From assembly GCA_045658885.1 (NCBI GenBank), contig JAZOVU010000040.1, positions 7,062-39,061 on the forward strand: 32,000 nucleotides of DNA, in the 5' to 3' direction. Made by a program: the position numbers and the translations under genes. This document shows positions 6,891-32,000 of this stretch, one piece after another (within the stretch, counting starts at the first letter, position 1; each line of letters opens with the position of its first letter). Origin of the DNA: Candidatus Pelethomonas sp. (GTDB taxonomy: Bacteria; Bacillota; Clostridia; Oscillospirales; Oscillospiraceae). The notes below the pieces were generated by a model. That model did no database searches and was not told where the DNA came from. It was given only the letters and a program-made list of their open reading frames with translations.

Positions 6891-7940
6891 TCACTGGAAG
6901 GAATATTTGCTGTTCTTCAGAAGTAACAGGAAGAACGGAACGCCAATAAAGGCAGTGACAACACCGATGGGAAGCTCCGAGGGAGCAACTACGACGCGCG
7001 CCAGCGCATCTGCCCAGACCATCAGGATGCCACCCAGCAATACAGCGAATGGTATCATCCGTCGGTGTGCTGTTCCCGCAATGGTTCGTGCAATATGCGG
7101 AATCACCAATCCCACGAAACCAATGGTACCACTCACAGACACCATTACGCCAGTCACCAAACTACTCAGCACAACAATCAACAATTTCAGCCTTGGCACA
7201 TCCACACCCACGGTAATGGCTAATTCTTCCCCGAGGAGCAACGCATCCAATGCTTTATGTGCTGTCAGCATCACACAAAGGCAGAGCACCAACGAAACAA
7301 ACACAGGCAGAACATCGCTCCATGCCACACCAGCAAAAGAGCCAGTCATCCAGAATAAAACAGCCGATAGCTTTTTCTCATTGCTCTGCATGAAAATCAG
7401 CAGATTGGACAGGGCGGAGAACAGGGCAGAGATAGCCGTACCAGACAGAATCAGCTTCGTAGCACTCACACGACCACTCGCACCTGCCAACAGGAACACC
7501 AGTGCAGAGGAAAGAATTGCCCCCAGAAATGCGCCACCTTGCACGGACACTACACCAAGCAGAGGCAGAGTGCCCACTAAGATTGCCGCCGTCGCACCAG
7601 CAGATGCACCAGAGGAAATACCCAATAGATAGGGGTCAGCCATTGAATTTTTCGTCATCGCCTGCATCATAATGCCAACCAAGCTCAACCCTGCTCCCAC
7701 ACAAGCGGCAACCAAGACCTTTGGCAATCGCATTCCCCACACAATGCCATTGGCATACGCTGGCCAGACAACGGGATAGACATCGTTTCCCGTCAGATTG
7801 TTCACCAGAATTTGATACACCCACGCAGGTGTAATATCTACCGCACCGATATGGATAGCCAACACAATCGAAAACAGGAGGAATCCTGCCATCAGGGTAC
7901 AAATTAAAACAAAAAGGGATGTACGAATATTTTTCAGCAT
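6891..7940 (-). CDS. FecCD-family ABC permease
   Basis: 349-aa, very hydrophobic (~10 TM) ORF with glycine-rich FecCD-like segments. It abuts the ATPase gene. Confidence 0.85.
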   Translation of the reverse strand: MLKNIRTSLFVLICTLMAGFLLFSIVLAIHIGAVDITPAWVYQILVNNLTGNDVYPVVWPAYANGIVWGMRLPKVLVAACVGAGLSLVGIMMQAMTKNSMADPYLLGISSGASAGATAAILVGTLPLLGVVSVQGGAFLGAILSSALVFLLAGASGRVSATKLILSGTAISALFSALSNLLIFMQSNEKKLSAVLFWMTGSFAGVAWSDVLPVFVSLVLCLCVMLTAHKALDALLLGEELAITVGVDVPRLKLLIVVLSSLVTGVMVSVSGTIGFVGLVIPHIARTIAGTAHRRMIPFAVLLGGILMVWADALARVVVAPSELPIGVVTAFIGVPFFLLLLKNSKYSFQ

Positions 7941-7987
7941 AAAAACACCACACAGGGCTACATCAAAACGATGCAGCCCCGTCTTCT

Positions 7988-8992
7988 TTAGTCTTCAGGA
8001 TGGAACTTGGAAGCAAGCATAGGAATCGTATCTGCAATGCGCTCACCAACCGTCAGGTCAACTAGACCGATAACGATGAAGTTTTCGTTCTGCACCGCCT
8101 TCATCTGACTGCAAGCAGGATGATTTTTCAGGAAAGTAATCCAGAAATCCGCATCCTCTGCCCCCTCGTAGACACCGAGGACAATCCATTCAGGGTCTGC
8201 GGCAGCAATTTCCTCCCAGCTGACATTCAGCCAAGGGTCAGTCGTATTGTTGATAATATTTGCACCGCCAGCCGTTCGGAAAATGTCTGCCACCAGTGCA
8301 TCACCAGCAGTAAAGGCGGCTTCTTCAGAGGAGTAGGCATCGATATACACGACGCTGACAGGAGCCACATCCGCCATTTGTTCAGCGACAGGTTCAATTT
8401 TTGCTTTCATCTGGGCAACGATTTCTGCGGCGCGTGTTTCTTTGCCGAAAATCTTGCCCATATTGGTAAAGTCGTCGTATACAGACTGTATCTTAGCACC
8501 GTCAATATCGGAAGTCATTGTGTAAGTTCCGATATTGTTCGCAGTGAGAAACTCGTAGGTATAATCAGGAGAACCATTCCAGAACATCATAAAATCAGGT
8601 TCGAGTGCCATAATCATTTCCTGCGAAACCGACCATTCTTCCGTGATACAATGCAGGGAGTCAAAAGCCGCCTTGTACTGGTCGGGAATTACATTTTCCT
8701 GCATCGCATAGCCGACAATGTTCTGCTCCAACCCCAACGCGAGCAACATTTCCGTGGCAGGGCTGGCAAGGGTCACAATACGCTGTGGAATCGTAGCGTA
8801 AGTAAATTCATAGCTCTCGCCTAGAATGACATTTTTCAGTGTGAAATCTTGTGTTCCGGATACTTCGTTCTGTGTATCGCCGTCTGTCTGCGAACCATTA
8901 TTTGCAGGCCCCTCCGTATTGGTGCTACCGCATCCCACCAACAGGCTCATCGTCATCGCTACGACCATGAGAAGCGTCAACAATCGTTTCAT
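7988..8992 (-). CDS. Periplasmic-binding-protein type (BtuF/FhuD-like) substrate-binding lipoprotein
   Basis: Signal peptide plus lipobox (LLVGCGS), 334 aa, first gene of the three-gene importer operon. The ligand cannot be assigned from sequence. Confidence 0.8.
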   Translation of the reverse strand: MKRLLTLLMVVAMTMSLLVGCGSTNTEGPANNGSQTDGDTQNEVSGTQDFTLKNVILGESYEFTYATIPQRIVTLASPATEMLLALGLEQNIVGYAMQENVIPDQYKAAFDSLHCITEEWSVSQEMIMALEPDFMMFWNGSPDYTYEFLTANNIGTYTMTSDIDGAKIQSVYDDFTNMGKIFGKETRAAEIVAQMKAKIEPVAEQMADVAPVSVVYIDAYSSEEAAFTAGDALVADIFRTAGGANIINNTTDPWLNVSWEEIAAADPEWIVLGVYEGAEDADFWITFLKNHPACSQMKAVQNENFIVIGLVDLTVGERIADTIPMLASKFHPED

Positions 8993-9210: not shown

Positions 9211-9299
9211 TGGCGCAGCGGGAGGGATTCGAACCCTCGTGCGATTGCTCGCAAACTGATTTCGAGTCAGCCCCGTTATGACCACTTCGATACGCTTGC
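9211..9299 (-). tRNA. tRNA-Ser (anticodon CGA), class II with long variable arm and encoded CCA; the acceptor stem is aberrant
   Basis: The minus strand reads GCAAGCG-TA-TCG-AAGTGGTCATAA-CGG-G-GCTGA-CTCGAAA-TCAGT-TTGCGAGCAATCGCAC-GAGGG-TTCGAAT-CCCTC-CCGCTGC-G-CCA. The anticodon CGA lies at 9264-9262. The T arm, anticodon arm and variable arm fold normally. In the acceptor stem, only 4 of 7 positions pair in the canonical register. Confidence 0.75.
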
Positions 9300-19353: not shown

Positions 19354-19410
19354 AAAAATAGAATTCGAAGCACAAAGTGCTTCGCGATATAAAAAATAAA
19401 GGAGATGCTT

Positions 19411-20154
19411 ATGGCAAACGACGGAATATCCATTGATAGAATAATATCAAGGCTTGACGAATATTTAAGCAAAAACGACCAAGAGGGCGCAAAAAGGCAT
19501 CTTCATTATTGGCTTGACGAGGCGATAAATGCCAAAAACGGCAGAGTAGAGCTTCTTTTAAGAAACGAGCTTATGGGAATTTACCGCAAGAACGGCAATC
19601 GCTCCCTTGCTCTTGAAAATGCCGAGGGAGCTCTTGCAAAAATCAAGGAGCTGGGAATTGAGAGTCAGGTCGGCTCGGCAACGACTTATCTAAACGTTGC
19701 AACCGTGTATAAATCCTTTGGAATGGCAAAGGAGGCATTACCAATATTCGAAAAAGCTAAGGCAATTTATGAGTCAAGCCTTGAAAAAAACGACACAAGG
19801 CTCGCAGGGCTTTATAATAATATGGCGCTTGCCTTGGTTGACGAGGGGATTTTCGACAGGGCATATGAGCTTTATGATAAGGCGCTCAAAATTACAAACG
19901 GTACGCTTGAAACGGCAATAACGCACCTTAATATTGCAAGCGCAAAAGAGGCAGAGCTAGGACTCGAGGACGCTGATGAGCAAATACAAAAGCGACTTGA
20001 AAGCGCACGCGAGATTTTGGAAAATCACGAAAACCAAGACGGCTACTACGCCTTCGTTTGCGAAAAGTGTGCGGGCGTTTTCGGCTATTACGGACACTTT
20101 CTTTACGAGCAAGAATTAAACGAAAGGGCAAGGAAAATTTATGAAGGGAATTGA
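19411..20154 (+). CDS. Tetratricopeptide-repeat protein
   Basis: TPR-like A/Y/L periodicity (ATTYLNVATVYKSFGMAKEALPIFEKA, LYNNMALALVDEGIFDRAYELYDKAL). ATG 19411 has proper spacing from GGAG. The ATG at 19405 abuts the SD. Confidence 0.65.
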   Translation: MANDGISIDRIISRLDEYLSKNDQEGAKRHLHYWLDEAINAKNGRVELLLRNELMGIYRKNGNRSLALENAEGALAKIKELGIESQVGSATTYLNVATVYKSFGMAKEALPIFEKAKAIYESSLEKNDTRLAGLYNNMALALVDEGIFDRAYELYDKALKITNGTLETAITHLNIASAKEAELGLEDADEQIQKRLESAREILENHENQDGYYAFVCEKCAGVFGYYGHFLYEQELNERARKIYEGN

Positions 20155-25933: not shown

Positions 25934-26141
25934 ACAAGAAGGCGGTATGAATATTTAAACGGCTGGACATAAAATGAGAATATTTGATTTTAACTATGCA
26001 AGTGGTTAATTTCAAATGGTAGCGATTTATGTAATGCATTTTAACTATTTGTGCCCGATGAAAGCGCACGGGATACGTGGGCTTTGTCGGGCTATACTTA
26101 TACCTTCTTGTAGAAATTACTATAAGGAGGTTGTTTTTATT
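25934..26141 (+). promoter_or_regulatory. Unusually long (~200 nt) 5' leader with long-range pairing
   Basis: ACAAGAAGG (25934-25942) is perfectly complementary to CCTTCTTGT (26103-26111). GCCCGA (26053-26058) pairs with TCGGGC (26087-26092), enclosing CACG-GGATA-CGTG. The AAGGAGG SD is at 26124-26130. Confidence 0.35.
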
Positions 26142-27239
26142 ATGAACAACGAAACATTGGAATTTATCCAAGAACAAATAGGGTATAAATTTAAAAACGA
26201 AGATTTGCTGGTGCAAGCTTTTACAAGACGTTCGTATGCGAATGAAAACGGTGGTGAAGATAACGAAGTATTAGAGTTTATCGGTGATACCGCGCTTGAT
26301 TTTATTGTCGTCAAAATACTTACAGAAAGATATGGGTATTTTGCGAGTGAATGCGATGATTATGATCCCGAAGAAGAATGCAACGAATTTATTTCCGAAC
26401 GAGACGAGGGGCAGCTCACAGAATTAAAAAAGAATTTAGTAAAAAGAGAAACTCTTGCGTCAAGAATTGATGAATTCGGATTTGCGGAGTACTTGATCAT
26501 GGGAAAGGGCGATGAAGACAATAACGCAAATCAAGAAGCTTCAGTAAAAGAAGATTTGTTTGAGGCTATCATTGGTGCTGTTACTCTCGACAGTTCTTGG
26601 GATAATGAAAAGATGCAAGAAGTCGTCGACATTATGCTTAACCCAGATGAGTATTTGGATGCTCAAGATAATGATGATGAAAAAGAAGAAAATTATGTAA
26701 GCTTAATTCAAGAATGGGTTTCTAAAAAGTATAAATGTGTGCCACGGTATATATTCATTGAAGAAAACGACATTTGGCGTGCGCGAGGTGAGTATGATAC
26801 GATTGATGATTATAATTATCACGGGTACGATGAAAAACATGCGTGTGTTTTGAAACTTGGTAGCTTTGATAAAAAATTTCTGTCTTTGGGGCACAGCAAA
26901 AAAAGGGCAAGACTAAACGCTTGCGTTCTGGCGTATAAGTATTTAAGGGAACACAATCTTTTTTATCTGCCTATCGATGAAATCGGAGAGCCTGATGTTT
27001 CAAAAGCAATCAATCAATTGCAAGAACTTCATCAAAAAAAATATATAGGTGAGCCATGGTATGACTTTTCGGAAGCATATGATGATAACGGTAATCCAAT
27101 TTGGCATTGTGAATGTCATGTAAGCGGAAGAGATACTTATTGGTGGAGAGATTGCTCATCAAAAAAACAAGGTAAAAAACTTGTTGCCTATGATATGCTT
27201 TGCGATATCCTCGGCTGGGAGGAAGATGATGAGGCTTAA
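26142..27239 (+). CDS. RNase III-family protein with an internal acidic/Cys insert and two C-terminal dsRBD-like modules (accessory paralogue)
   Basis: 365 aa counted from ATG 26142. Carries the NEVLEFIGD signature and KEDLFEAIIGA, the two RNase III catalytic acid clusters. Has two dsRBD-like C-terminal helices: GHSKKRARLNACVLAYKYL and CSSKKQGKKLVAYDMLCDIL. The gene is clearly A+T-rich (about 30% G+C in a 60-nt sample I counted). Confidence 0.7.
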   Translation: MNNETLEFIQEQIGYKFKNEDLLVQAFTRRSYANENGGEDNEVLEFIGDTALDFIVVKILTERYGYFASECDDYDPEEECNEFISERDEGQLTELKKNLVKRETLASRIDEFGFAEYLIMGKGDEDNNANQEASVKEDLFEAIIGAVTLDSSWDNEKMQEVVDIMLNPDEYLDAQDNDDEKEENYVSLIQEWVSKKYKCVPRYIFIEENDIWRARGEYDTIDDYNYHGYDEKHACVLKLGSFDKKFLSLGHSKKRARLNACVLAYKYLREHNLFYLPIDEIGEPDVSKAINQLQELHQKKYIGEPWYDFSEAYDDNGNPIWHCECHVSGRDTYWWRDCSSKKQGKKLVAYDMLCDILGWEEDDEA

Positions 27240-27429
27240 AGAATTACGTGCAGAAAAGGGAGCAACACAAAAGGAAGTTGCTGAGTTTATTTGTTGTTCT
27301 CCGCTGGTATATTCGCGTTATGAAAGAGAAGAGCGTGAACCGGATATAGATTCGCTTTGCAGACTCGCAGATTATTTCGGAGTAACCATTGACTATTTGG
27401 TTGGACGAGAAAAAACAATTAAACAATAA
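27226..27429 (+). CDS. XRE/Cro-C1-family helix-turn-helix protein
   Basis: MRLKELRAEKGATQKEVAEFICCSPLVYSRYEREEREPDIDSLCRLADYFGVTIDYLVG is a textbook HTH_3 pattern. Its start (ATG 27226 or 27229) lies inside the 3' end of the RNase III-like gene, after a GGGAGGAAG SD. Confidence 0.85.
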   Translation: MMRLKELRAEKGATQKEVAEFICCSPLVYSRYEREEREPDIDSLCRLADYFGVTIDYLVGREKTIKQ

Positions 27430-27430
27430 T

Positions 27431-27476
27431 AAAAAAATCCGATTAGGAGTCGCAAGAAACCTAATCGGATTTTTAT
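27431..27476 (+). terminator. Intrinsic terminator of the RNase III-like/XRE operon
   Basis: ATCCGATTAGG (27437-27447) pairs with CCTAATCGGAT (27460-27470), followed by TTTT. Confidence 0.75.
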
Positions 27477-27495
27477 ATTAGCATCTCAATTTAGC

Positions 27496-27528
27496 GAAAA
27501 AAGGAGATTCTTGTGAATCTCCTTTTTG
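27496..27528. terminator. Second, bidirectional terminator hairpin; on the minus strand it ends the candidate ncRNA
   Basis: AAGGAGATTC (27501-27510), TTGT loop, GAATCTCCTT (27515-27524). Six As lie on one side and five Ts on the other, so the minus strand reads stem + TTTTTTCGC. Confidence 0.7.
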
Positions 27529-27766
27529 GTCTGAGTGGAACCTTGCGTAAGCTCGGCGTGTCCGCCCTCCGAGTAGCAAACAAGACTTCTCGCTCGGCAG
27601 AGCGAGGTCGCAGGCGACAGAACTTGCGCTACCCGGTCAAGTCGCATAGTCAAAAACGACAAATAATCGCAGATTTTTGCCATTTTCTCCTTGCTTTGTT
27701 GACTTCGCGGCGTAAAAACCGTCGTTTAGAAGGTTTTTAGTTGCTCACCCTACCACCCCAAGACCG
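27528..27766 (-). ncRNA. Candidate structured ncRNA of unknown class (~240 nt plus terminator)
   Basis: My hand count gives about 58% G+C over 27531-27660, against about 39% for 27661-27780 and about 30% in a 60-nt sample of the adjacent RNase III-like gene. Perfect local stems are CTCGG/CCGAG (27552-27573), CTCGCT/AGCGAG (27589-27606) and GTCG/CGAC (27607-27618). The ends can pair (27753-27765 with 27528-27538, and 27743-27748 with 27547-27552). The last helix needs a G-U pair that exists only in the minus-strand transcript. The only ORF here reads through the terminator. Confidence 0.4.
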
Positions 27767-27781
27767 ATTTTTATATTTTTC

Positions 27782-27809
27782 TAGTGCTAAATAGTGCTTA
27801 TTGGTGCTA
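27782..27809. repeat. Three direct TAGTGCT-type repeats at exact 10-bp phasing
   Basis: TAGTGCTA (27782), TAGTGCTTA (27792), TGGTGCTA (27802). A TTGACA hexamer on the minus strand (27818-27813) lies immediately beside them. Confidence 0.6.
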
Positions 27810-27866
27810 TTCTGTCAACCAAAGTGTATATTTTCGTGCTCTCGTGTACTACTGTTTCCATGTAGT

Positions 27867-27898
27867 CCACTTCTCGAAGTGGTCAAGCATGTGGTCAA
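27867..27898. repeat. 16-bp palindrome overlapping two GTGGTCAA direct repeats
   Basis: CCACTTC-TC-GAAGTGG (27867-27882). GTGGTCAA at 27879-27886 and 27891-27898. Confidence 0.55.
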
Positions 27899-27983
27899 AA
27901 AACAAGTCCTGCGTATCCGTTTATTGTGATACACAGGGCTTCGTTTTTCGTTTACCGTACCCCAAAATTGGGGGCGCAAAAAC

Positions 27984-28006
27984 CGACGAAAAAGGTCGAC
28001 GAAAAA
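27984..28006. repeat. Tandem CGACGAAAAA repeats (13-bp phasing), preceded by a CCCCAAAATTGGGG inverted repeat (27960-27974)
   Basis: CGACGAAAAA at 27984-27993 and 27997-28006. Confidence 0.5.
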
Positions 28007-28030
28007 ATGAAGATAATTTAATAGAATCTA

Positions 28031-28081
28031 TTGACAGTAACGCTAATAACTGATATAATATCGTTAGTAACCGTTAGTAAC
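28031..28081 (+). promoter_or_regulatory. Consensus promoter of the AlbA_2/AEP-helicase operon with a tandem palindromic operator over the predicted start site
   Basis: TTGACA (28031-28036), 17 nt, TATAAT (28054-28059). CGTTAGTAAC is repeated perfectly in tandem (28062-28071 and 28072-28081), and each unit contains the GTTA-G-TAAC palindrome. A partial related copy GTAACG lies in the spacer (28037-28042). Confidence 0.6.
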
Positions 28082-28098
28082 GAAGTTGGAGGCAAAAT

Positions 28099-29388
28099 AT
28101 GTTGGAAGATAAGAATATCGAGTTTAAAAGGGAATATGTTGAGGATATAAAAAACACGCTTGTTGCTTTTGCAAATACTGATGGTGGTAATCTTTATATC
28201 GGAATTGACGATGACGGCAATGCTGTTGAAATCAATAATTTTGACGGTGTTATATTACAGATACCACACGTGATCCGAGATGCGATCAAGCCGGATCTTG
28301 CAATGTTTTGCGATATTACTGTGGAAACCGTTCAAAACAAAAAGGTTGTCAAAATCACCGTCAATCGCGGTACTGCCCGTCCTTATTATTTGGCGGCTAA
28401 AGGTATTCGTCCGGAAGGTGTATATGTGAGACAGGGGGCATCATCCGTTCCTGCTTCCGAGAGTGCAATTCTTTCTATGATACGAGAAACAGCTGGGGAT
28501 AGCTATGAGGAGGCGCGCTCGCTTATTCAGGAATTAACCTTCAATGAAGCAAATATTGTTTTTGAAAATAAGCAAATTCCTTTCGGAGACGCACAGAAGA
28601 GAAGCCTTGGCTTGATTGGCGAGGACGGAACGTATACCAATCTTGCGTTGTTGCTTTCCGATCAGTGTACTCATACTGTAAAAATTGCAGTTTTTGAAGG
28701 CGAGCAAAAGACGGTATTTAAGGATAGACGAGAATTTAGCGGTTCGCTGTTAAAGCAGCTTAACGATGCGTATCAGTTTATAGATCAGTTTAATCATACA
28801 CACTCACATACGGAAGGTCTTTACCGTGTTGATAAAAGAGCATATCCTGCGGAAGCAATCAGAGAGGCACTTTTGAACGCTATTGTTCACAGAGAATATA
28901 GCTTTTCAGCGAGCACACTAATCAGTATTTTTGATAACCGAATAGAGTTCGTATCCATAGGTGGACTTGCACACGGTATTTCACAAAGTGATATATTGCT
29001 CGGCATCTCAATTGCTCGAAATAAAAAGCTCGCAGATGTGTTCTATCGTTTGCATTTGATTGAGGCTTACGGCACAGGCATGCCCAAAATCATGGAGTCT
29101 TATAAAGAATACGGAATTGTGCCACATATAGAAATATCGGCCAATGCATTTAAAATTGCGTTACCTAATAATACAAATGCGACTGTTAAAGAAACAAAGG
29201 TTGAGTTGACCGAAAACGAGCAAGGCGTGCTTTCTGTACTGAAAGAAGGAATTAAGTCGCGTCCTGAAATTCAAAAGGCGCTTGGCTTTTCGCAAACGAC
29301 TACGATAGTAACAATATCAGCTTTAATTGATAAAGGCTTGATTATAAAGGTCGGAAATGGGAACAAGACGAAATATAAATTGATATAA
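28099..29388 (+). CDS. AlbA_2 (Schlafen-type) domain + HATPase_c_4-like ATPase + C-terminal winged-helix protein (often annotated as putative DNA/RNA-binding transcriptional regulator)
   Basis: N-terminus NIEFKREY...LVAFANTDGGNLYIGIDDDG (AlbA_2 pattern). Mid-protein AIREALLNAIVHREY (the pattern I recall from RecG-C-terminal-like ATPase family members). C-terminal LTENEQGVLSVLKEGIKSRPEIQKALGFSQTTTIVTISALIDKGLI (wHTH). GGAGG SD 6 nt upstream. Confidence 0.7.
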   Translation: MLEDKNIEFKREYVEDIKNTLVAFANTDGGNLYIGIDDDGNAVEINNFDGVILQIPHVIRDAIKPDLAMFCDITVETVQNKKVVKITVNRGTARPYYLAAKGIRPEGVYVRQGASSVPASESAILSMIRETAGDSYEEARSLIQELTFNEANIVFENKQIPFGDAQKRSLGLIGEDGTYTNLALLLSDQCTHTVKIAVFEGEQKTVFKDRREFSGSLLKQLNDAYQFIDQFNHTHSHTEGLYRVDKRAYPAEAIREALLNAIVHREYSFSASTLISIFDNRIEFVSIGGLAHGISQSDILLGISIARNKKLADVFYRLHLIEAYGTGMPKIMESYKEYGIVPHIEISANAFKIALPNNTNATVKETKVELTENEQGVLSVLKEGIKSRPEIQKALGFSQTTTIVTISALIDKGLIIKVGNGNKTKYKLI

Positions 29389-29402
29389 AAAGAGGCTGTA
29401 AA

Positions 29403-32000
29403 ATGTATGAGAAGCTATATCGTGAGCTTTTGCTACGTTACAACGCATTAGAGGGTGAAAATAAGCGGCTCTCGGAGGAAAATGCGCGGTTGCGACTGCA
29501 ATTTGGCTTTGCGAATGCATTCAATGAAAATACTGAGATACTAGCAATCGCCCCCACTTCTGTCAACAAATACAGCTCTTCAAAGGAAAAGATCGAGTTA
29601 TTCCGTTCGTTGTTTTGTGGCAGGGAAGATGCGTTTGCGAGACGGTGGCAAAGCACGACGATCGGAAAAAGCGGATATCAGCCCGTGTGTGAAAATGAAT
29701 GGGCGGAAGGTTTGTGCGATAAAAGAAAATATAAGTGCGCAAACTGTCCCAATCGAGTGTTAAAATCCTTAACTGATGAAGATATTTACAAGCATCTTGA
29801 GGGAAAGGATGCTCTTGCTCGGGATGTGATAGGAATTTATCCTATGCTGCAGGATGAAACTTGCCATTTCCTGTGTGCCGACTTTGATGATGACTTGTTT
29901 GAAATGGATGTTTCCGCTTTCAGAGAGGTTTGTAAGGAATTAGGGATACCCGTGTACGTGGAACGATCTCGCTCCGGAAATGGCGCCCATTCATGGATAT
30001 TCTTCGAGTCGCCTATTGCTGCCGCTACCGCACGCAAATTAGGAAGTGGTATTTTGACCCAAGCGATGGAGAAGCGCGGAGAGTTGTCATTCAAGTCGTA
30101 TGACAGATTGTTTCCAAACCAAGATACAATGCCTAACGGTGGTTTTGGAAATCTTGTTGCTTTGCCTTTACAAGGACTGGCAAGAAAAAGTGGAAACAGT
30201 GTTTTTGTTGATGAGTATTTTCAACCATATGAAGATCAATGGGCGTATCTTTCTGCTGTAAAAAGATTGAGTGCAGATGCGGTTGAAGCTTTGGTTATGT
30301 CTTTCGGTAAGGATGGTGAGCTTGGTAAACTCATTAGCGAATCCGAAAGTAAGCCGTGGGAAACTAAAAAGAAGATCAAAATTACACGAAGTGATTTTCC
30401 TATGATGCTGAATGTTGTTCGTGCAAATATGCTTTATATTCCTACGGTAGATTTATCCGCGAATGCGAAGAATCAGATCAAACGTCTTGCGGCATTTAAA
30501 AATCCCGATTTTTACCGTGCTCAGGCAATGAGATTACCAATATACGATAAGCCGCGGATCATATGCACAGCGGACATCGCAGAAGATTATATTGCCATTC
30601 CGCGCGGTTGCGAGGAAGCACTTTGCAATCTGCTCGATGAAGCAGACGTATCATATGCAATCGAAGATAAAACCAATTCAGGAGAGATTATACCCGTTAC
30701 TTTTAACGGTGAGTTGCGTGAAGAACAGCGGCCTGCGGCAGACGCACTATTGGAACAAGATACGGGTGTTCTATCTGCAACAACGGCGTTCGGTAAGACT
30801 GTCATTGCCTCGTATATGATCGGGAAAAGAAAAACAAACACCTTGATTCTCGTACATACACAAGCTTTGATGACACAATGGAAAAAGTCTCTCGAAAGCT
30901 TTCTGAAGTTTGACATAATACCGCCCGAGGAAAAGAAGGGCAAAGGTCGCAGGAAGGTGTGGTCTCCCATTGGCATTCTCGGCGCAGGGAAGGATACTTT
31001 ACACAGCGTTGTCGATATTGCTGTTATGCAGTCACTTATTAACGGTGATGAGGTAAAAGAGCTTGTTCGTAATTACGGAATGATTATTGTTGACGAGTGC
31101 CATCACGTTTCTGCGGTCAATTTTGAGATGATACTCAAGCACGTCAATGCAAAATATGTTTATGGACTAACCGCTACACCCACAAGGCAAGATGGACATC
31201 ATCCTATCATATTTATGCAATGCGGTGCGATCCGATACCGCGTAGATGCTAAGGAGCAAGCTGAGAAGCGAAGCTTTGAGCATTATCTCGTGCCGAGGTT
31301 TACCAATACGCGCTGCCCAGGCGAGGGTAAGCCGAGCATCACGGATATTTACAAGAAATTATCTGAAAATGAGCTCCGAAACAATATGATTGTTTTCGAT
31401 GTTGTTGAAGCATCGAAAAACGGAAGAAATCCTATTGTGCTGACCGAACGCCGAGAGCATGTTGCGTTGCTTGCGGAACGGCTTTCCTGTTATTGCAAAA
31501 ACATTATTCAACTCGTGGGAACCGCTTCCGCAAAGGAGCGCAGAGAAACGATGGAAAGGCTTGAAGCTATCCCCAGTGATGAATCGGTTGTCATAGTTGC
31601 AACGGGTAAATACGTAGGAGAAGGCTTCGACTATCCTCGGTTGGATACGTTATTCCTTGCGTTGCCGATTGCGTGGAAGGGTAAAGTCGCACAGTATGTC
31701 GGCAGACTCCACAGAAATTATGAAGGCAAAACCGAGGTGCAGGTCTATGATTATGTGGATATCCATATTCCTGTACTTGAAAGAATGTATCAAAAGCGTG
31801 TGAAAAGTTATTCTGCTATTGGATATAAAACAAAGCTTTTGTCAAATGCCAATGCATCTCCTGACTTGATCTATGACGGAAAATCTTTTTATCACGGATT
31901 TTGTAATGATTTGCAAAATGCTAAAAGCGAAGTTCTGATTGTGAGTCCGTTTATGAGAAAAAGCAGAATCACAAGTCTTATGAAAATCCTTAAGTCGGAT
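29403..32000 (+). CDS. Giant fusion protein: coiled coil + Cys-rich element + archaeo-eukaryotic primase (PrimPol-like) domain + SF2 (DEAD/DEAH, ResIII-like) helicase + start of a probable PLD-like C-terminal domain; runs off the right edge
   Basis: Open frame of exactly 866 codons from ATG 29403 (AGAGG SD 7 nt upstream) to the window end; it is missing from the track only because it is open-ended. AEP motifs checked in frame: CADFDDD (DxD, 29880-29894), SGNGAH (29973-29990) and YDRLFPNQD. Cys cluster: CENEWAEGLCDKRKYKCANCP. Helicase motifs: TAFGKT (GKT, about 30792), VDECHH (about 31092), GLTATPTRQDG and QYVGRLHR. The C-terminal EVLIVSPFM resembles the first strand of PLD-like nuclease domains. 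Confidence 0.8.
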   Translation, partial: MYEKLYRELLLRYNALEGENKRLSEENARLRLQFGFANAFNENTEILAIAPTSVNKYSSSKEKIELFRSLFCGREDAFARRWQSTTIGKSGYQPVCENEWAEGLCDKRKYKCANCPNRVLKSLTDEDIYKHLEGKDALARDVIGIYPMLQDETCHFLCADFDDDLFEMDVSAFREVCKELGIPVYVERSRSGNGAHSWIFFESPIAAATARKLGSGILTQAMEKRGELSFKSYDRLFPNQDTMPNGGFGNLVALPLQGLARKSGNSVFVDEYFQPYEDQWAYLSAVKRLSADAVEALVMSFGKDGELGKLISESESKPWETKKKIKITRSDFPMMLNVVRANMLYIPTVDLSANAKNQIKRLAAFKNPDFYRAQAMRLPIYDKPRIICTADIAEDYIAIPRGCEEALCNLLDEADVSYAIEDKTNSGEIIPVTFNGELREEQRPAADALLEQDTGVLSATTAFGKTVIASYMIGKRKTNTLILVHTQALMTQWKKSLESFLKFDIIPPEEKKGKGRRKVWSPIGILGAGKDTLHSVVDIAVMQSLINGDEVKELVRNYGMIIVDECHHVSAVNFEMILKHVNAKYVYGLTATPTRQDGHHPIIFMQCGAIRYRVDAKEQAEKRSFEHYLVPRFTNTRCPGEGKPSITDIYKKLSENELRNNMIVFDVVEASKNGRNPIVLTERREHVALLAERLSCYCKNIIQLVGTASAKERRETMERLEAIPSDESVVIVATGKYVGEGFDYPRLDTLFLALPIAWKGKVAQYVGRLHRNYEGKTEVQVYDYVDIHIPVLERMYQKRVKSYSAIGYKTKLLSNANASPDLIYDGKSFYHGFCNDLQNAKSEVLIVSPFMRKSRITSLMKILKSD

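Follow-up and report, generated by a model that had tools for sequence, protein, structure and literature searches.

The open reading frame (ORF) that closes the 32,000-nt stretch of DNA under analysis (the window) is a real gene for a large fusion protein that joins a primase-polymerase (Prim-Pol), an XPB-like motor and, by homology, a nuclease just past the window end. Our preferred reading, to which we assign a probability of approximately 0.5, is that the product, one chain that probably forms homodimers, works on ATP as an "open, prime, cut" conflict enzyme encoded on a mobile cassette, most likely serving host defence against invading DNA. In such an enzyme, a leucine zipper would pair two chains so that two single-HKD PLD halves form one nuclease active site; the XPB-like motor would translocate on duplex DNA or open it locally; the CAPP-like Prim-Pol, aided by a Zn knuckle, would bind the exposed single strand and start DNA synthesis de novo; and the PLD dimer would then cleave the engaged DNA. 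Discrimination of foreign from self DNA and a protective phenotype would be expected of an enzyme of this kind.

The ORF is stop-free for 866 codons and runs off the window end. Homologues at 85–93% identity are all 950–957 aa long and have a single-HKD PLD nuclease as their C-terminus, and therefore approximately 91 residues of the fusion protein are predicted to lie past the window end; close homologues at 66–93% identity range from 945 to 969 aa, with PF13091 present in nearly all of them. AAGAGG precedes the ATG at 29403, and 14 nt separate this start codon from the TAA of the upstream gene. The gene and its predicted domains are as follows:

29403..32000, + strand: AEP/Prim-Pol, XPB-like SF2 helicase and PLD fusion gene, 866 of approximately 957 codons (ORF, Pfam, homologue lengths, motif conservation)
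29403..29501, + strand: leucine zipper, aa 1–33, L9/L16/L23/L30 (heptad leucines, AlphaFold2 helix, conserved in homologues)
29586..30290, + strand: AEP-TOTE Prim-Pol domain, aa 62–296, with Cys4 knuckle and catalytic motifs I, II and III (Pfam, PDB, Foldseek)
29688-29747, + strand: Cys4 knuckle, aa 96–115 (C96-x8-C105-x6-C112-x2-C115)
30291..30710, + strand: linker alpha/beta region, aa 297–436 (first part under the PADLOC Cas-associated PrimPol model; AlphaFold2 confidence mixed to low)
30711..31832, + strand: XPB/Rad25-like SF2 helicase core, aa 437–810, with Walker A GKT, DECH, TATP, an RQD "RED-like" motif and motif VI (Pfam, PDB, Foldseek)
31902..32000, + strand: start of PLDc_2 nuclease domain, aa 834–866, with the HKD motif past the window (homologue Pfam, PADLOC, Foldseek)

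The Prim-Pol domain matches Pfam AEP-TOTE (PF22548) over model positions 1–229 of 230 (E = 3.5e-100; 334.8 bits against a cut-off of 27), which as a sequence match is far beyond chance, and the same family is matched in 35 of 35 diverse homologues. The AEP motifs DFDDD (aa 160–164), SGNGAH (aa 191–196) and YDRLFPNQD (aa 233–241) are intact, and residues D160, D162, S191, G192, G194, H196 and D234 are invariant in the 35 homologues, which span more than eight phyla; the four knuckle cysteines are at least 90% conserved in the same set. The best-matching solved structures are those of the CAPP Prim-Pol, both by sequence (PDB 7nqd/7nqf, E = 4e-12) and by fold (Foldseek match to 7nqe, target-normalised TM 0.80, E = 1.9e-13). 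The PADLOC Cas-associated PrimPol model PDLC01465 covers aa 45–365 (E = 1.3e-89), NCBIfam NF040561 (PrimPol_Msp) scores 115.8 bits, below its cut-off of 200, and the PADLOC model RT_UG10_large gives a weak match over aa 167–271. The whole-protein AlphaFold2 model was built from a shallow alignment and has a mean pLDDT of 63.9, with poor confidence in the helicase and linker regions.

N-terminal to the Prim-Pol domain, AlphaFold2 predicts a helix at residues 2–33 (pLDDT 79–88) that is kept in most of the 35 homologues irrespective of partner type, and HALZ Pfam matches occur in two family members; this putative leucine zipper would serve as a homodimerisation element. A role for the helix as a partner-specific adaptor was rejected, since zippers of one type accompany Schlafen, AAA_14 and SWIM partners and are also present where there is no partner.

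The helicase region has Pfam matches to ResIII (aa 437–595), DEAD and Helicase_C (aa 668–772), with GKT at aa 464–466, DECH at 564–567, TATP at 590–593 and QYVGRLHR at 764–771; G464-K-T and D564-E-C are invariant in the 35 homologues from more than eight phyla. The best PDB helicase match is XPB (E = 2e-19), with GLTATPTRQDGHH aligned to GLTATPERDDGKH and GLTATFEREDGRH, and Foldseek matches of this region are to XPB and TFIIH. The RQD that follows motif III aligns to the RED/RDD of XPB, in a protein for which the AlphaFold2 model is weak in the thumb/DRD region, and there is an insertion relative to XPB at about aa 503–525. The NCBIfam XPB score is 50.8 against a cut-off of 610, and the XPB, RadD and Hef scores of the fusion protein are all far under their cut-offs; by these sequence comparisons the helicase is XPB-like and not an XPB orthologue.

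The last 33 residues encoded in the window already align with the start of PLDc_2, the HKD motif falling beyond base 32000; in the full-length homologue P0003 PLDc_2 spans aa 834–953, and a PADLOC match to the MkoB PLD region covers aa 814–864. In close homologues the motif reads FHQKFTV[VI]DQSVVWYGSVNF, that is HxK(x4)D, followed by GSxN, and HQKFTV[VI]D...GSVN is present in homologues at 85–93% identity to the window protein. The closest Foldseek matches of the PLD part are NucT, Nuc and Zucchini (TM 0.58–0.67), each of which has a single HKD motif and works as a dimer. The HKD motif is intact across the window clade, down to approximately 54% core identity. Across the family, many relatives lack the nuclease or have it in a catalytically dead form, and the C-terminal module is swapped among relatives (PLD, DUF559/Vsr-like or none), as is typical of conflict effectors; the family alignments point to a C-terminal nuclease that is optional and to primase and helicase catalytic residues that are invariant. 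Because of this contrast, priming and the motor would be the obligatory step of the family and cutting an add-on kept intact in the window clade, so a restriction-like cutting mechanism would not be general.

The initial annotation, made from the letters alone, had described an AEP–SF2 helicase fusion of more than 866 aa with an N-terminal coiled coil, a Cys knuckle and intact AEP motifs, and had predicted that it continues into a PLD-type nuclease. The open ORF and the Pfam matches to both domains bear out the fusion, the AEP fold has both profile and structural support, the knuckle is present, all the AEP and helicase motifs named lie where they had been placed, and the PLD domain is present in full-length homologues. 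The coiled coil proved to be a leucine zipper with heptad spacing, and the SF2 helicase with motifs I, II, III and VI could be refined to an XPB/Rad25-like one.

Upstream of the fusion gene, the following elements were identified:

27755..27900, + strand: 146-nt conserved non-coding element that co-travels with the cassette (upstream here; downstream of the cassette in other genomes)
28031..28059, + strand: cassette promoter, TTGACA, 17-nt spacer, TATAAT, extended TG (12/12 consensus; sole perfect site in 27200–29500)
28062..28081, + strand: perfect tandem of two CGTTAGTAAC copies, after the -10 box and before the Shine-Dalgarno (Tandem Repeats Finder: period 10, 2 copies, 100% match)
28099..29388, + strand: partner gene, 429 aa, Schlafen/AlbA_2, HATPase_c_4 and C-terminal winged-helix (Pfam, PADLOC)
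29389..29402, + strand: 14-nt intergenic spacer with AAGAGG ribosome-binding site (sequence reading)

The promoter lies 40 nt 5′ of the ATG of the partner gene, and the tandem CGTTAGTAAC repeat is a putative, operator-like element. The partner protein matches SLFN_AlbA_2 (E = 4.7e-20) and HATPase_c_4 (E = 1.5e-14) in Pfam, with weak TrmB-like wHTH matches, and CasR/Csa3-like wHTH models in PADLOC. There is no terminator between the partner and the fusion gene, and the same partner lies 14–15 nt upstream of the enzyme gene at loci L001, L002/L046, L008, L009, L087 and L088. The fusion gene comes second in a two-gene cassette that has its own promoter. DNA identity of approximately 86% starts at 27750–27975 and extends through the two genes, but the genes on either side are different in each genome; this pattern shows that the cassette moves between genomes. 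Copies of the 146-nt element that are 89–93% identical lie upstream of the cassette in L002/L046/L048 and approximately 315 nt past the stop codon of the enzyme gene in L001, L009 and L011. A search for the element as direct repeats flanking the cassette gave only one copy in each locus, on a side that varies by genome. Neither Rfam nor tRNA scanning of the sequence around the cassette gave a significant match.

The 14-nt gap, the common promoter without an intervening terminator and the joint travel of the gene pair at approximately 86% DNA identity could indicate an obligate two-component system in which the Schlafen/HATPase_c_4/wHTH partner acts as sensor and licenses the fusion enzyme; in roughly 20–24 of 59 loci, a same-strand gene does lie at most approximately 40 nt upstream. 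However, we consider such obligate coupling doubtful. In L090/L091 the enzyme is 85% identical and has no partner; elsewhere the partners belong to unrelated families (SLFN/HATPase_c_4, ATPase_2 with DUF234, AAA_14 with DUF4143, DUF1016/YhcG, SWIM, AbiEii and HTH_17), every one of which is by itself a stand-alone PADLOC defence candidate; and the N-terminus of the enzyme does not co-vary with partner type. The partner gene is co-transcribed, yet as an accessory it is optional and can be exchanged; it may be a regulator, a sensor or a defence gene in its own right.

The cassette sits, by the annotation of its neighbours, beside restriction, abortive-infection or integrative-element genes. In the window, the neighbours at 26016–29388 are RNase III-like, XRE and SLFN/HATPase_c_4 genes; L002 has the context HTH-Vsr-Dcm ×3-HNH-NUDIX-RT, L088 has SbcCD-Mrr, the cassette and HTH-Vsr-Z1, L001 has integrases and an S24 repressor, and L087 has a T4SS coupling protein nearby, while at L090 the enzyme gene lies without visible mobile genetic element (MGE) genes. 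Among 145 neighbouring proteins from 25 diverse loci, recurrent families include AAA_14/DUF4143, Fic, AbiEii/AbiEi, AbiLi, DpdF, dGTPase and PsyrT, as well as PDC-S01, S05, S23, S27 and S62. This association with defence islands in the sampled loci suggests a defence role through guilt by association, a link also suggested by the "conflict system" label of the Pfam and PGAP curators and by the patchy distribution of the family. The analysis found nothing that would tell self from non-self.

The family comprises 2,727 clusters at 50% identity (E ≤ 1e-30), and 684–876 of 5,426 complete Escherichia coli genomes (13–16%, about one in seven; O157:H7 included) carry a member. The E. coli copy follows int-HTH-YfjI/DUF3987-Gp2 in an integrative island, and PGAP names it a "TOTE conflict system AEP domain" protein. 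The O157 homologue presumably corresponds to the "Z1568-like" AEP family of Iyer et al. (2005). Of 120 plasmids with a match, 51 are conjugative, and short nuclease-less forms on alphaproteobacterial conjugative plasmids adjoin genes for DUF736, an ArdC-like zincin peptidase, ParB-like and strawberry-notch proteins and TraA/TraC/TraD/TraG; other contexts are Tn3 cargo in Bacillus and TA-rich accessory regions in Acinetobacter. Short relatives in establishment-type plasmid regions, and several long-form loci near ICE or integrative genes, speak against defence and fit a benefit to the MGE too. The full architecture is absent from 50,697 phage records, in which matches are helicase-only, and phage-encoded copies were rejected on this basis.

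The label of a TOTE conflict system AEP domain given in the initial annotation was correct (PF22548, and the PGAP name of the E. coli homologue), and, in keeping with its statement that the class lacks experimental characterisation, no experimental study of the family or of the architecture was found in the literature searched. The alternative that the initial annotation had raised, a plasmid or ICE replicative primase-helicase, fared less evenly: the homologues are not embedded in Rep/Par modules (top 25 families of 145 neighbours, 25 diverse loci) and plasmid copies lie in accessory regions, whereas the short nuclease-less relatives in establishment-type plasmid regions agree with it.

CAPP from Marinitoga (PDB 7nqd/7nqe/7nqf/7p9j) is the closest solved AEP by sequence and fold, with the same catalytic motifs, and as the nearest characterised AEP it primes, polymerises and strand-displaces; most non-CRISPR homologues of CAPP are Prim-Pol and helicase fusions in MGEs (Zabrady et al., 2021; PMC8211822). 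Unlike CAPP, the window protein has an extra Cys4 knuckle and a zipper, and is fused to an XPB-like helicase and PLD rather than to TPR or PriCT-like domains. CRISPR association of the fusion gene was rejected, with no CRISPR array in the window and no cas genes near the window gene or among the top 25 neighbour families of 25 loci. PADLOC v2 has no dedicated system model, and among system domains only the Cas-associated PrimPol model matches. TOTE denotes TPR, OB, TBP, Effector conflict systems (Aravind, Iyer and Burroughs, 2022, as quoted in PMC12458937), and as far as that quotation describes them the window protein shares with them the full-length AEP-TOTE effector-type domain. Measured against the same quoted description, a canonical TOTE operon was rejected. 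A TPR-OB/CSD fusion gene is absent from the position adjoining upstream in the window and from either flank in L001, L002, L087, L088, L090 and the E. coli locus, and is not recurrent among the top 25 families of 145 neighbours from 25 loci; the sole TPR protein of the window (19405–20154) belongs to an unrelated run of genes at a distance of 9 kb and lacks an OB/CSD domain. A TBP-like gene was likewise absent from the closest loci, the E. coli locus and the top 25 families of 145 neighbours, a list in which families with two or fewer occurrences could escape. The TOTE label is, on this gene content, a domain name only, and the window protein looks like a stand-alone effector.

The combination of motor and nuclease is common to XPB/Rad25 with Bax1 (PDB 6p4f, 6p4o, 2fwr), including motif III followed by R-x-D, but the window-type nuclease is a PLD, fused in cis and unrelated to Bax1, and the window gene is accessory and mobile, not housekeeping. 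Proteins of the pRN1 ORF904 type, TraC1, Sog and the Primpol of Tn1549-like elements likewise combine a Prim-Pol and a helicase on mobile DNA. The helicase of ORF904 belongs to SF3; that of the window protein is SF2/XPB-like, without recurrent Rep/Par linkage and with a C-terminal nuclease in the window clade. In the type IV restriction enzyme SauUSI the PLD domain is N-terminal; the domain order is therefore reversed in the window protein, and SauUSI has no polymerase domain. SauUSI-type enzymes (PDB 7clg) otherwise share an SF2 motor and a single-HKD PLD in one chain, with a sequence match over the helicase (E = 3.7e-10) and PADLOC mREase_IV matches; a modified-DNA reader (SRA, DUF3427 or similar) was absent from the Pfam and PADLOC results for the window protein and the full-length homologue. 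PPRT/DRT PrimPol-RT proteins (PMC12439943; bioRxiv 10.64898/2026.04.18.719102) also place a Prim-Pol inside a single-chain anti-phage protein, but the fusion protein has no reverse-transcriptase domain, its fused partners being the helicase and PLD.

Within a conflict role, the executing step could be de novo DNA synthesis itself and not cleavage: the motor would open invader DNA and the Prim-Pol would prime on it, which would poison, mark or hijack replication of the invader, and the upstream slot of the cassette would be a plug-in site for sensors or accessories. We offer this version only tentatively; the nuclease as an optional amplifier would explain its loss or death in many lineages beside invariant primase and helicase residues.

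The same invariant core and dispensable nuclease would also suit a primase-helicase that benefits the MGE, by priming or unwinding the DNA of the element itself (single-stranded DNA after conjugative entry, or an origin-independent start by XPB-like opening followed by priming), with the nuclease as a lineage-specific extra. The short forms beside conjugation and establishment genes on alphaproteobacterial plasmids, the 51 of 120 conjugative plasmids, the E. coli integrative island, the T4SS coupling protein at L087 and the integrases at L001 are in line with such a function; transferred single-stranded DNA is known to be primed by conjugative primases, and non-CRISPR CAPP–helicase genes have been placed in MGEs (PMC8211822). 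Yet an intact PLD under purifying selection in the window clade is hard to square with the copying of an element's own DNA, and the motor is of the monomeric SF2/XPB type, not a hexameric replicative SF3, SF4 or SF6 helicase. No Rep, Par or relaxase family is recurrent within three genes (top 25 families, 25 diverse loci), L090 lacks visible MGE genes, the cassette has its own constitutive-type promoter, and none of the 50,697 phage records holds the full architecture; we consider this function unlikely overall.

Alternatively, the enzyme could be a weapon that an ICE, plasmid or satellite expresses against competing elements or host defences, excluding competitors or neutralising restriction, rather than a protector of the chromosome. 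Its presence in leading regions, in which anti-defence genes (ArdC-like, ParB-like) tend to group, its location as cargo of E. coli integrative islands and of Tn3 in Bacillus, its occurrence in TA-rich accessory regions of Acinetobacter, and an intact nuclease and motor suited to attacking foreign DNA all accord with this. The data look alike, however, for host-beneficial defence, many loci lie amid chromosomal restriction-type genes, and no homology to known anti-defence proteins was found; such a weapon is decidedly improbable overall.

A host DNA-repair or damage-tolerance enzyme, combining PrimPol re-priming with XPB-Bax1-like lesion processing, is very improbable: the helicase is closest to XPB, the partner of the Bax1 nuclease in archaeal repair, Prim-Pols are active in damage tolerance, and a PrimPol-RT defence protein is reported to contribute also to an oxidative-damage response, but the distribution is sporadic and strain-variable, the cassette moves horizontally among defence and MGE genes and not repair genes, the NCBIfam XPB, RadD and Hef scores fall far under their cut-offs, and no LexA or SOS linkage was seen.

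The family is already computationally known and named, and the window copy brings no new architecture. It unites three nucleic-acid enzymes in one chain, and is very common and apparently without an experimentally assigned function; the E. coli homologues allow a direct test of the defence or the mobile-element idea. If the family serves mobile elements, it would represent a new type of enzyme for establishment or replication; if, as we favour, it is a defence effector, it would represent a primase-dependent mode of immunity beside reverse-transcriptase-based systems and CRISPR-associated Prim-Pols.

The fusion gene (window 29403-32000, + strand) is a single open frame of 866 codons with no interruption, beginning at an ATG that follows AAGAGG and lies 14 nt past the upstream gene’s stop codon. 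Every motif listed in the initial annotation is found at its expected place in this ORF: the AEP motifs DFDDD (aa 160-164), SGNGAH (191-196), and YDRLFPNQD (233-241); the helicase motifs GKT (464-466), DECH (564-567), TATP (590-593), and QYVGRLHR (764-771); and a Cys knuckle (C96-x8-C105-x6-C112-x2-C115). The N-terminus is a leucine zipper, with leucines at positions 9, 16, 23, and 30 of the helix. Pfam AEP-TOTE (PF22548) matches aa 62-296 (E = 3.5e-100; 229 of 230 model positions covered), followed by ResIII/DEAD (437-595) and Helicase_C (668-772). In PDB sequence searches, the AEP matched the CAPP Prim-Pol domain (7nqd/7nqf; E = 4e-12) and the helicase matched XPB/Rad25 (E = 2e-19); the restriction enzyme SauUSI (7clg) was also matched. 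The helicase is XPB-like: GLTATPTRQDGHH of the fusion protein aligns opposite GLTATPERDDGKH and GLTATFEREDGRH, a stretch comprising motif III and then the XPB ‘RED’ motif, which reads RQD in the fusion protein. An AlphaFold2 model was made for P0003, a full-length homologue (93% identical); its zipper helix, AEP domain, and PLD domain are confident, and its helicase and linker are weak (mean pLDDT 63.9). Foldseek searches with this model returned the CAPP Prim-Pol (TM 0.80, E = 1.9e-13), XPB/TFIIH, and the single-HKD nucleases NucT, Nuc, and Zucchini (TM 0.58-0.67). Pfam, PDB sequence, and Foldseek matches agree on an AEP plus SF2 helicase fusion; the observation holds, and the first reading of this gene was essentially right.

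At E <= 1e-10, the fusion protein has more than 8,000 matches among database proteins. The nearest homologues (66-93% identity) are 945-969 aa long, nearly all contain PF13091 (PLDc_2), and their C-termini read FHQKFTV[VI]DQSVVWYGSVNF, i.e., HxK(x4)D plus GSxN. The fusion gene aligns to 957-aa homologues with no net indels, and the window copy is therefore about 91 codons short; judged by sequence, the last 33 residues inside the window belong to the beginning of the PLD domain. Both observations bear out the earlier suggestion that the protein probably continues into a PLD-type nuclease, as predicted from the full-length homologues.

Across 35 aligned homologues (from Clostridia, Bacteroidota, Thermodesulfobacteriota, Fibrobacterota, Acidobacteriota, Planctomycetota, Myxococcota, Streptococcus, Paenibacillus, and others), the AEP residues D160, D162, S191, G192, G194, H196, and D234 and the helicase residues G464-K-T and D564-E-C are invariant, and conservation is at least 90% for the four Cys and the motif VI arginines. 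The C-terminus is variable. The HKD motif is intact in the window clade (close relatives) and in relatives down to ~54% core identity. In members from Bacteroidales, L023 (L numbers denote genome loci of homologues), and Streptococcus, the domain is still PLD-like but other residues stand in place of its catalytic His and Lys; such C-termini, of ~130-150 aa, occur in L035, L039, L041, L043, L023, L072, and L077, with SLSFSATIID, QSCRCAIID, TTENLTLID, and KIVTPILLVN at the motif and the AEP and helicase residues still intact. In four sequences (L052, L053, L055, and L059) a DUF559/MTES_1575 (Vsr-like) endonuclease replaces the PLD domain, and ten sequences stop directly after the helicase. Given this variability beside invariant primase and helicase residues, the obligatory family core consists of primase and helicase, with the nuclease as a lineage-specific module that is optional across the family. 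Three of the DUF559-type members (L053, L055, and L059) clearly have no N-terminal zipper and L052 has a long, non-zipper-like N-terminus, which fits a role for the zipper in PLD dimerization; however, the nuclease-less short forms retain the zipper.

The fusion gene occupies second place in a compact operon, and no terminator was found between it and the partner gene upstream. Features of this two-gene cassette, and copies of a non-coding 146-nt element (89-93% conserved) that accompanies it, are as follows:

28031-28059, + strand: cassette promoter, a perfect TTGACA-17-TATAAT with extended TG
28062-28081: perfect tandem CGTTAGTAAC x2, between the cassette -10 box and the Shine-Dalgarno of the partner gene
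28099-29388, + strand: partner gene, 429 aa, with Schlafen/AlbA_2, HATPase_c_4, and winged-helix domains
27755-27900: 146-nt element in the window
L001 13189-13334: 146-nt element
L009 11189-11334: 146-nt element
L011 2890-2958: 146-nt element
L002 8350-8500: 146-nt element

The tandem repeat is possibly an operator for the partner’s own winged-helix domain. GC is about 0.45 before base 26000 and falls to 0.37-0.42 beyond it. DNA identity to the closest loci is ~86%, sets in at 27750-27975, and extends through both genes; the genes around the cassette differ in each genome compared, which indicates that the partner and fusion genes move as a unit. The 146-nt element directly precedes the cassette in the window, L002/L046, and L048, but follows the fusion gene’s stop by ~315 nt in L001, L009, and L011. 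Its orientation is constant, and each locus has a single copy; the two positions could reflect breakage of a circular or tandem cassette intermediate at different points. In L002, the intact cassette is immediately preceded by an internally deleted remnant of a second fusion-gene copy (7323-8147; called gene 7541-8200), in which an N-terminal part (78% identical) is joined to a PLD-region fragment (86% identical), suggesting tandem duplication or cassette turnover there.

The window also encodes a 407-aa RNase III-like protein (26016-27429; GC 0.37), with an RNase III domain (aa 61-197) and a dsRBD (aa 331-396) separated by ~130 residues without a domain match. A small XRE/HTH_3-type gene (27181/27229-27429) overlaps its 3' end and is followed by a strong hairpin terminator (27427-27480). 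PADLOC gave no match for 26016-27429, and the RNase III-like gene may be an accessory or island gene and not the housekeeping rnc. Elsewhere, an 86-nt Rfam tRNA match at 9214-9299 (- strand; 36.6 bits versus a gathering score of 29), where ARAGORN called no tRNA, may be a long-arm or degenerate tRNA.

Roughly 20-24 of 59 genome loci have a same-strand gene ending within ~40 nt upstream of the fusion gene, and this slot is modular. Its occupants are mutually unrelated: SLFN_AlbA_2/HATPase_c_4, AAA_14+DUF4143, DUF1016/YhcG, SWIM-containing proteins, AbiEii, HTH_17, and, in seven Bacteroidales loci, ATPase_2+DUF234, which is the partner in all Bacteroidales copies with a substituted PLD motif. 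Several correspond to PADLOC single-gene ‘phage defence candidates’ (ATPase_2+DUF234, PDC-S27; AAA_14+DUF4143, S01; DUF1016/YhcG, S02; SWIM, S62). L090/L091 encode an enzyme 85% identical and have no partner gene, and no co-variation of the enzyme N-terminus with partner type was seen. We conclude that the partner is no obligate subunit but an optional gene, either an accessory or a co-resident defence gene. A PRiA4_ORF3-family gene, possibly a second partner type, directly follows the fusion gene both in a Prolixibacteraceae genome (L030 10931-12163; 2-nt gap) and on a Bacillus cereus plasmid (L095 10083-10649).

Among the close relatives, the surroundings are of three kinds: HTH–Vsr–three Dcm methylases–HNH–NUDIX–reverse transcriptase (L002); SbcCD–Mrr on one side and HTH–Vsr–Z1 on the other (L088); and an adjacent S24 repressor, excisionase-type HTH proteins, and integrases, or an adjacent T4SS coupling protein (L001 and L087). 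When the three closest neighbours on either flank were tallied at 25 diverse loci (145 proteins), the recurrent families were AAA_14/DUF4143, Fic, AbiEi/AbiEii, AbiLi, AAA_21, ATPase_2, RhuM, DpdF, dGTPase, and PsyrT, with recurrent matches also to PDC-S01, S05, S23, S27, and S62 and to recombinases. Cas, Rep/Par, TPR, TBP, and CSD were absent among them; homologues consistently embedded in replication or partition modules, which would have spoken against the initial annotation, were not what this comparison found.

No phage genome carried the fusion architecture. A near full-length match occurs in 95 of 72,556 plasmid records, mostly as the short form, the nuclease-less relative ending after the helicase. 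On Dinoroseobacter/Sinorhizobium conjugative plasmids the neighbours are DUF736, an ArdC-like peptidase, a ParB-like protein, strawberry-notch, TraA/TraG, and recombinases; the Bacillus copy is Tn3 cargo adjoining PRiA4_ORF3, and an Acinetobacter copy is preceded by a HigBA pair. Of 5,426 complete E. coli genomes, 684-876, O157:H7 included, carry the short form, usually within an integrase–HTH–YfjI/DUF3987–inovirus Gp2 island; IS elements often flank or interrupt it:

L094 6896-9262: E. coli short form, 786-788 aa
L097 9001-11361: E. coli short form, 786-788 aa

The RefSeq name of this E. coli protein, ‘TOTE conflict system archaeo-eukaryotic primase domain-containing protein’, and the Pfam AEP-TOTE match substantiate the TOTE label given in the initial annotation. 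TOTE (TPR, OB, TBP, Effector) denotes predicted conflict systems (Aravind, Iyer and Burroughs, 2022, quoted in PMC12458937). The fusion protein shares the effector-type AEP domain, but no TPR-OB or TBP gene was found upstream of it in the window or beside its closest relatives, and the locus is therefore not a TOTE system by the definition as quoted; we rejected a canonical TOTE system on this basis. By sequence and predicted fold, the Prim-Pol domain resembles that of CAPPs, which are primases, polymerases, and strand-displacing enzymes, and whose commonest non-CRISPR homologues were remarked upon, without study, as Prim-Pol plus helicase fusions in mobile elements (Zabrady et al., PMC8211822). 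The literature searched yielded no experimental work on the AEP–XPB-like–PLD architecture, in line with the initial annotation, which described the class as computationally predicted.

We favour a conflict or defence effector as the function of the fusion protein, with a probability of about 0.5. The strongest rival, a primase-helicase that benefits its element in establishment or replication, draws on the invariant primase-helicase core and the nuclease-less forms on plasmids, and priming of the transferred single strand is an activity of conjugative-element primases (PMC5512222); in the window clade, however, the nuclease is conserved and predicted to be active, the motor is of the SF2 type, and the neighbours are defence-type, and we regard this reading as unlikely. 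A weapon borne by a mobile element against competitors is less probable again, and a repair enzyme is improbable.

For the defence effector, our observations cover domain assignments, conserved residues, the operon and its mobility, and the genomic context; we infer the dimer, substrates, order of events, target discrimination, and phenotype. In single-HKD PLD enzymes, one active site takes two chains, and for this reason a homodimer is proposed, in which two fusion chains would pair through the zipper. Opening or tracking of DNA would fall to the XPB-like motor, and priming on the strand thus exposed to the Prim-Pol; in the window clade, cutting by the PLD dimer would follow.

The family is large, computationally recognized, and apparently uncharacterized by experiment; the window gene is a further member without architectural novelty, and the E. 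coli short form offers a tractable experimental model. What is added here is that the locus is not TOTE by the quoted definition, that the helicase is XPB-like, that the N-terminus is a leucine zipper, that the partner is optional and sits in a modular upstream slot, and that the nuclease is optional. These five points move the question from how one enzyme could both ‘make and destroy’ nucleic acid to why priming is indispensable.
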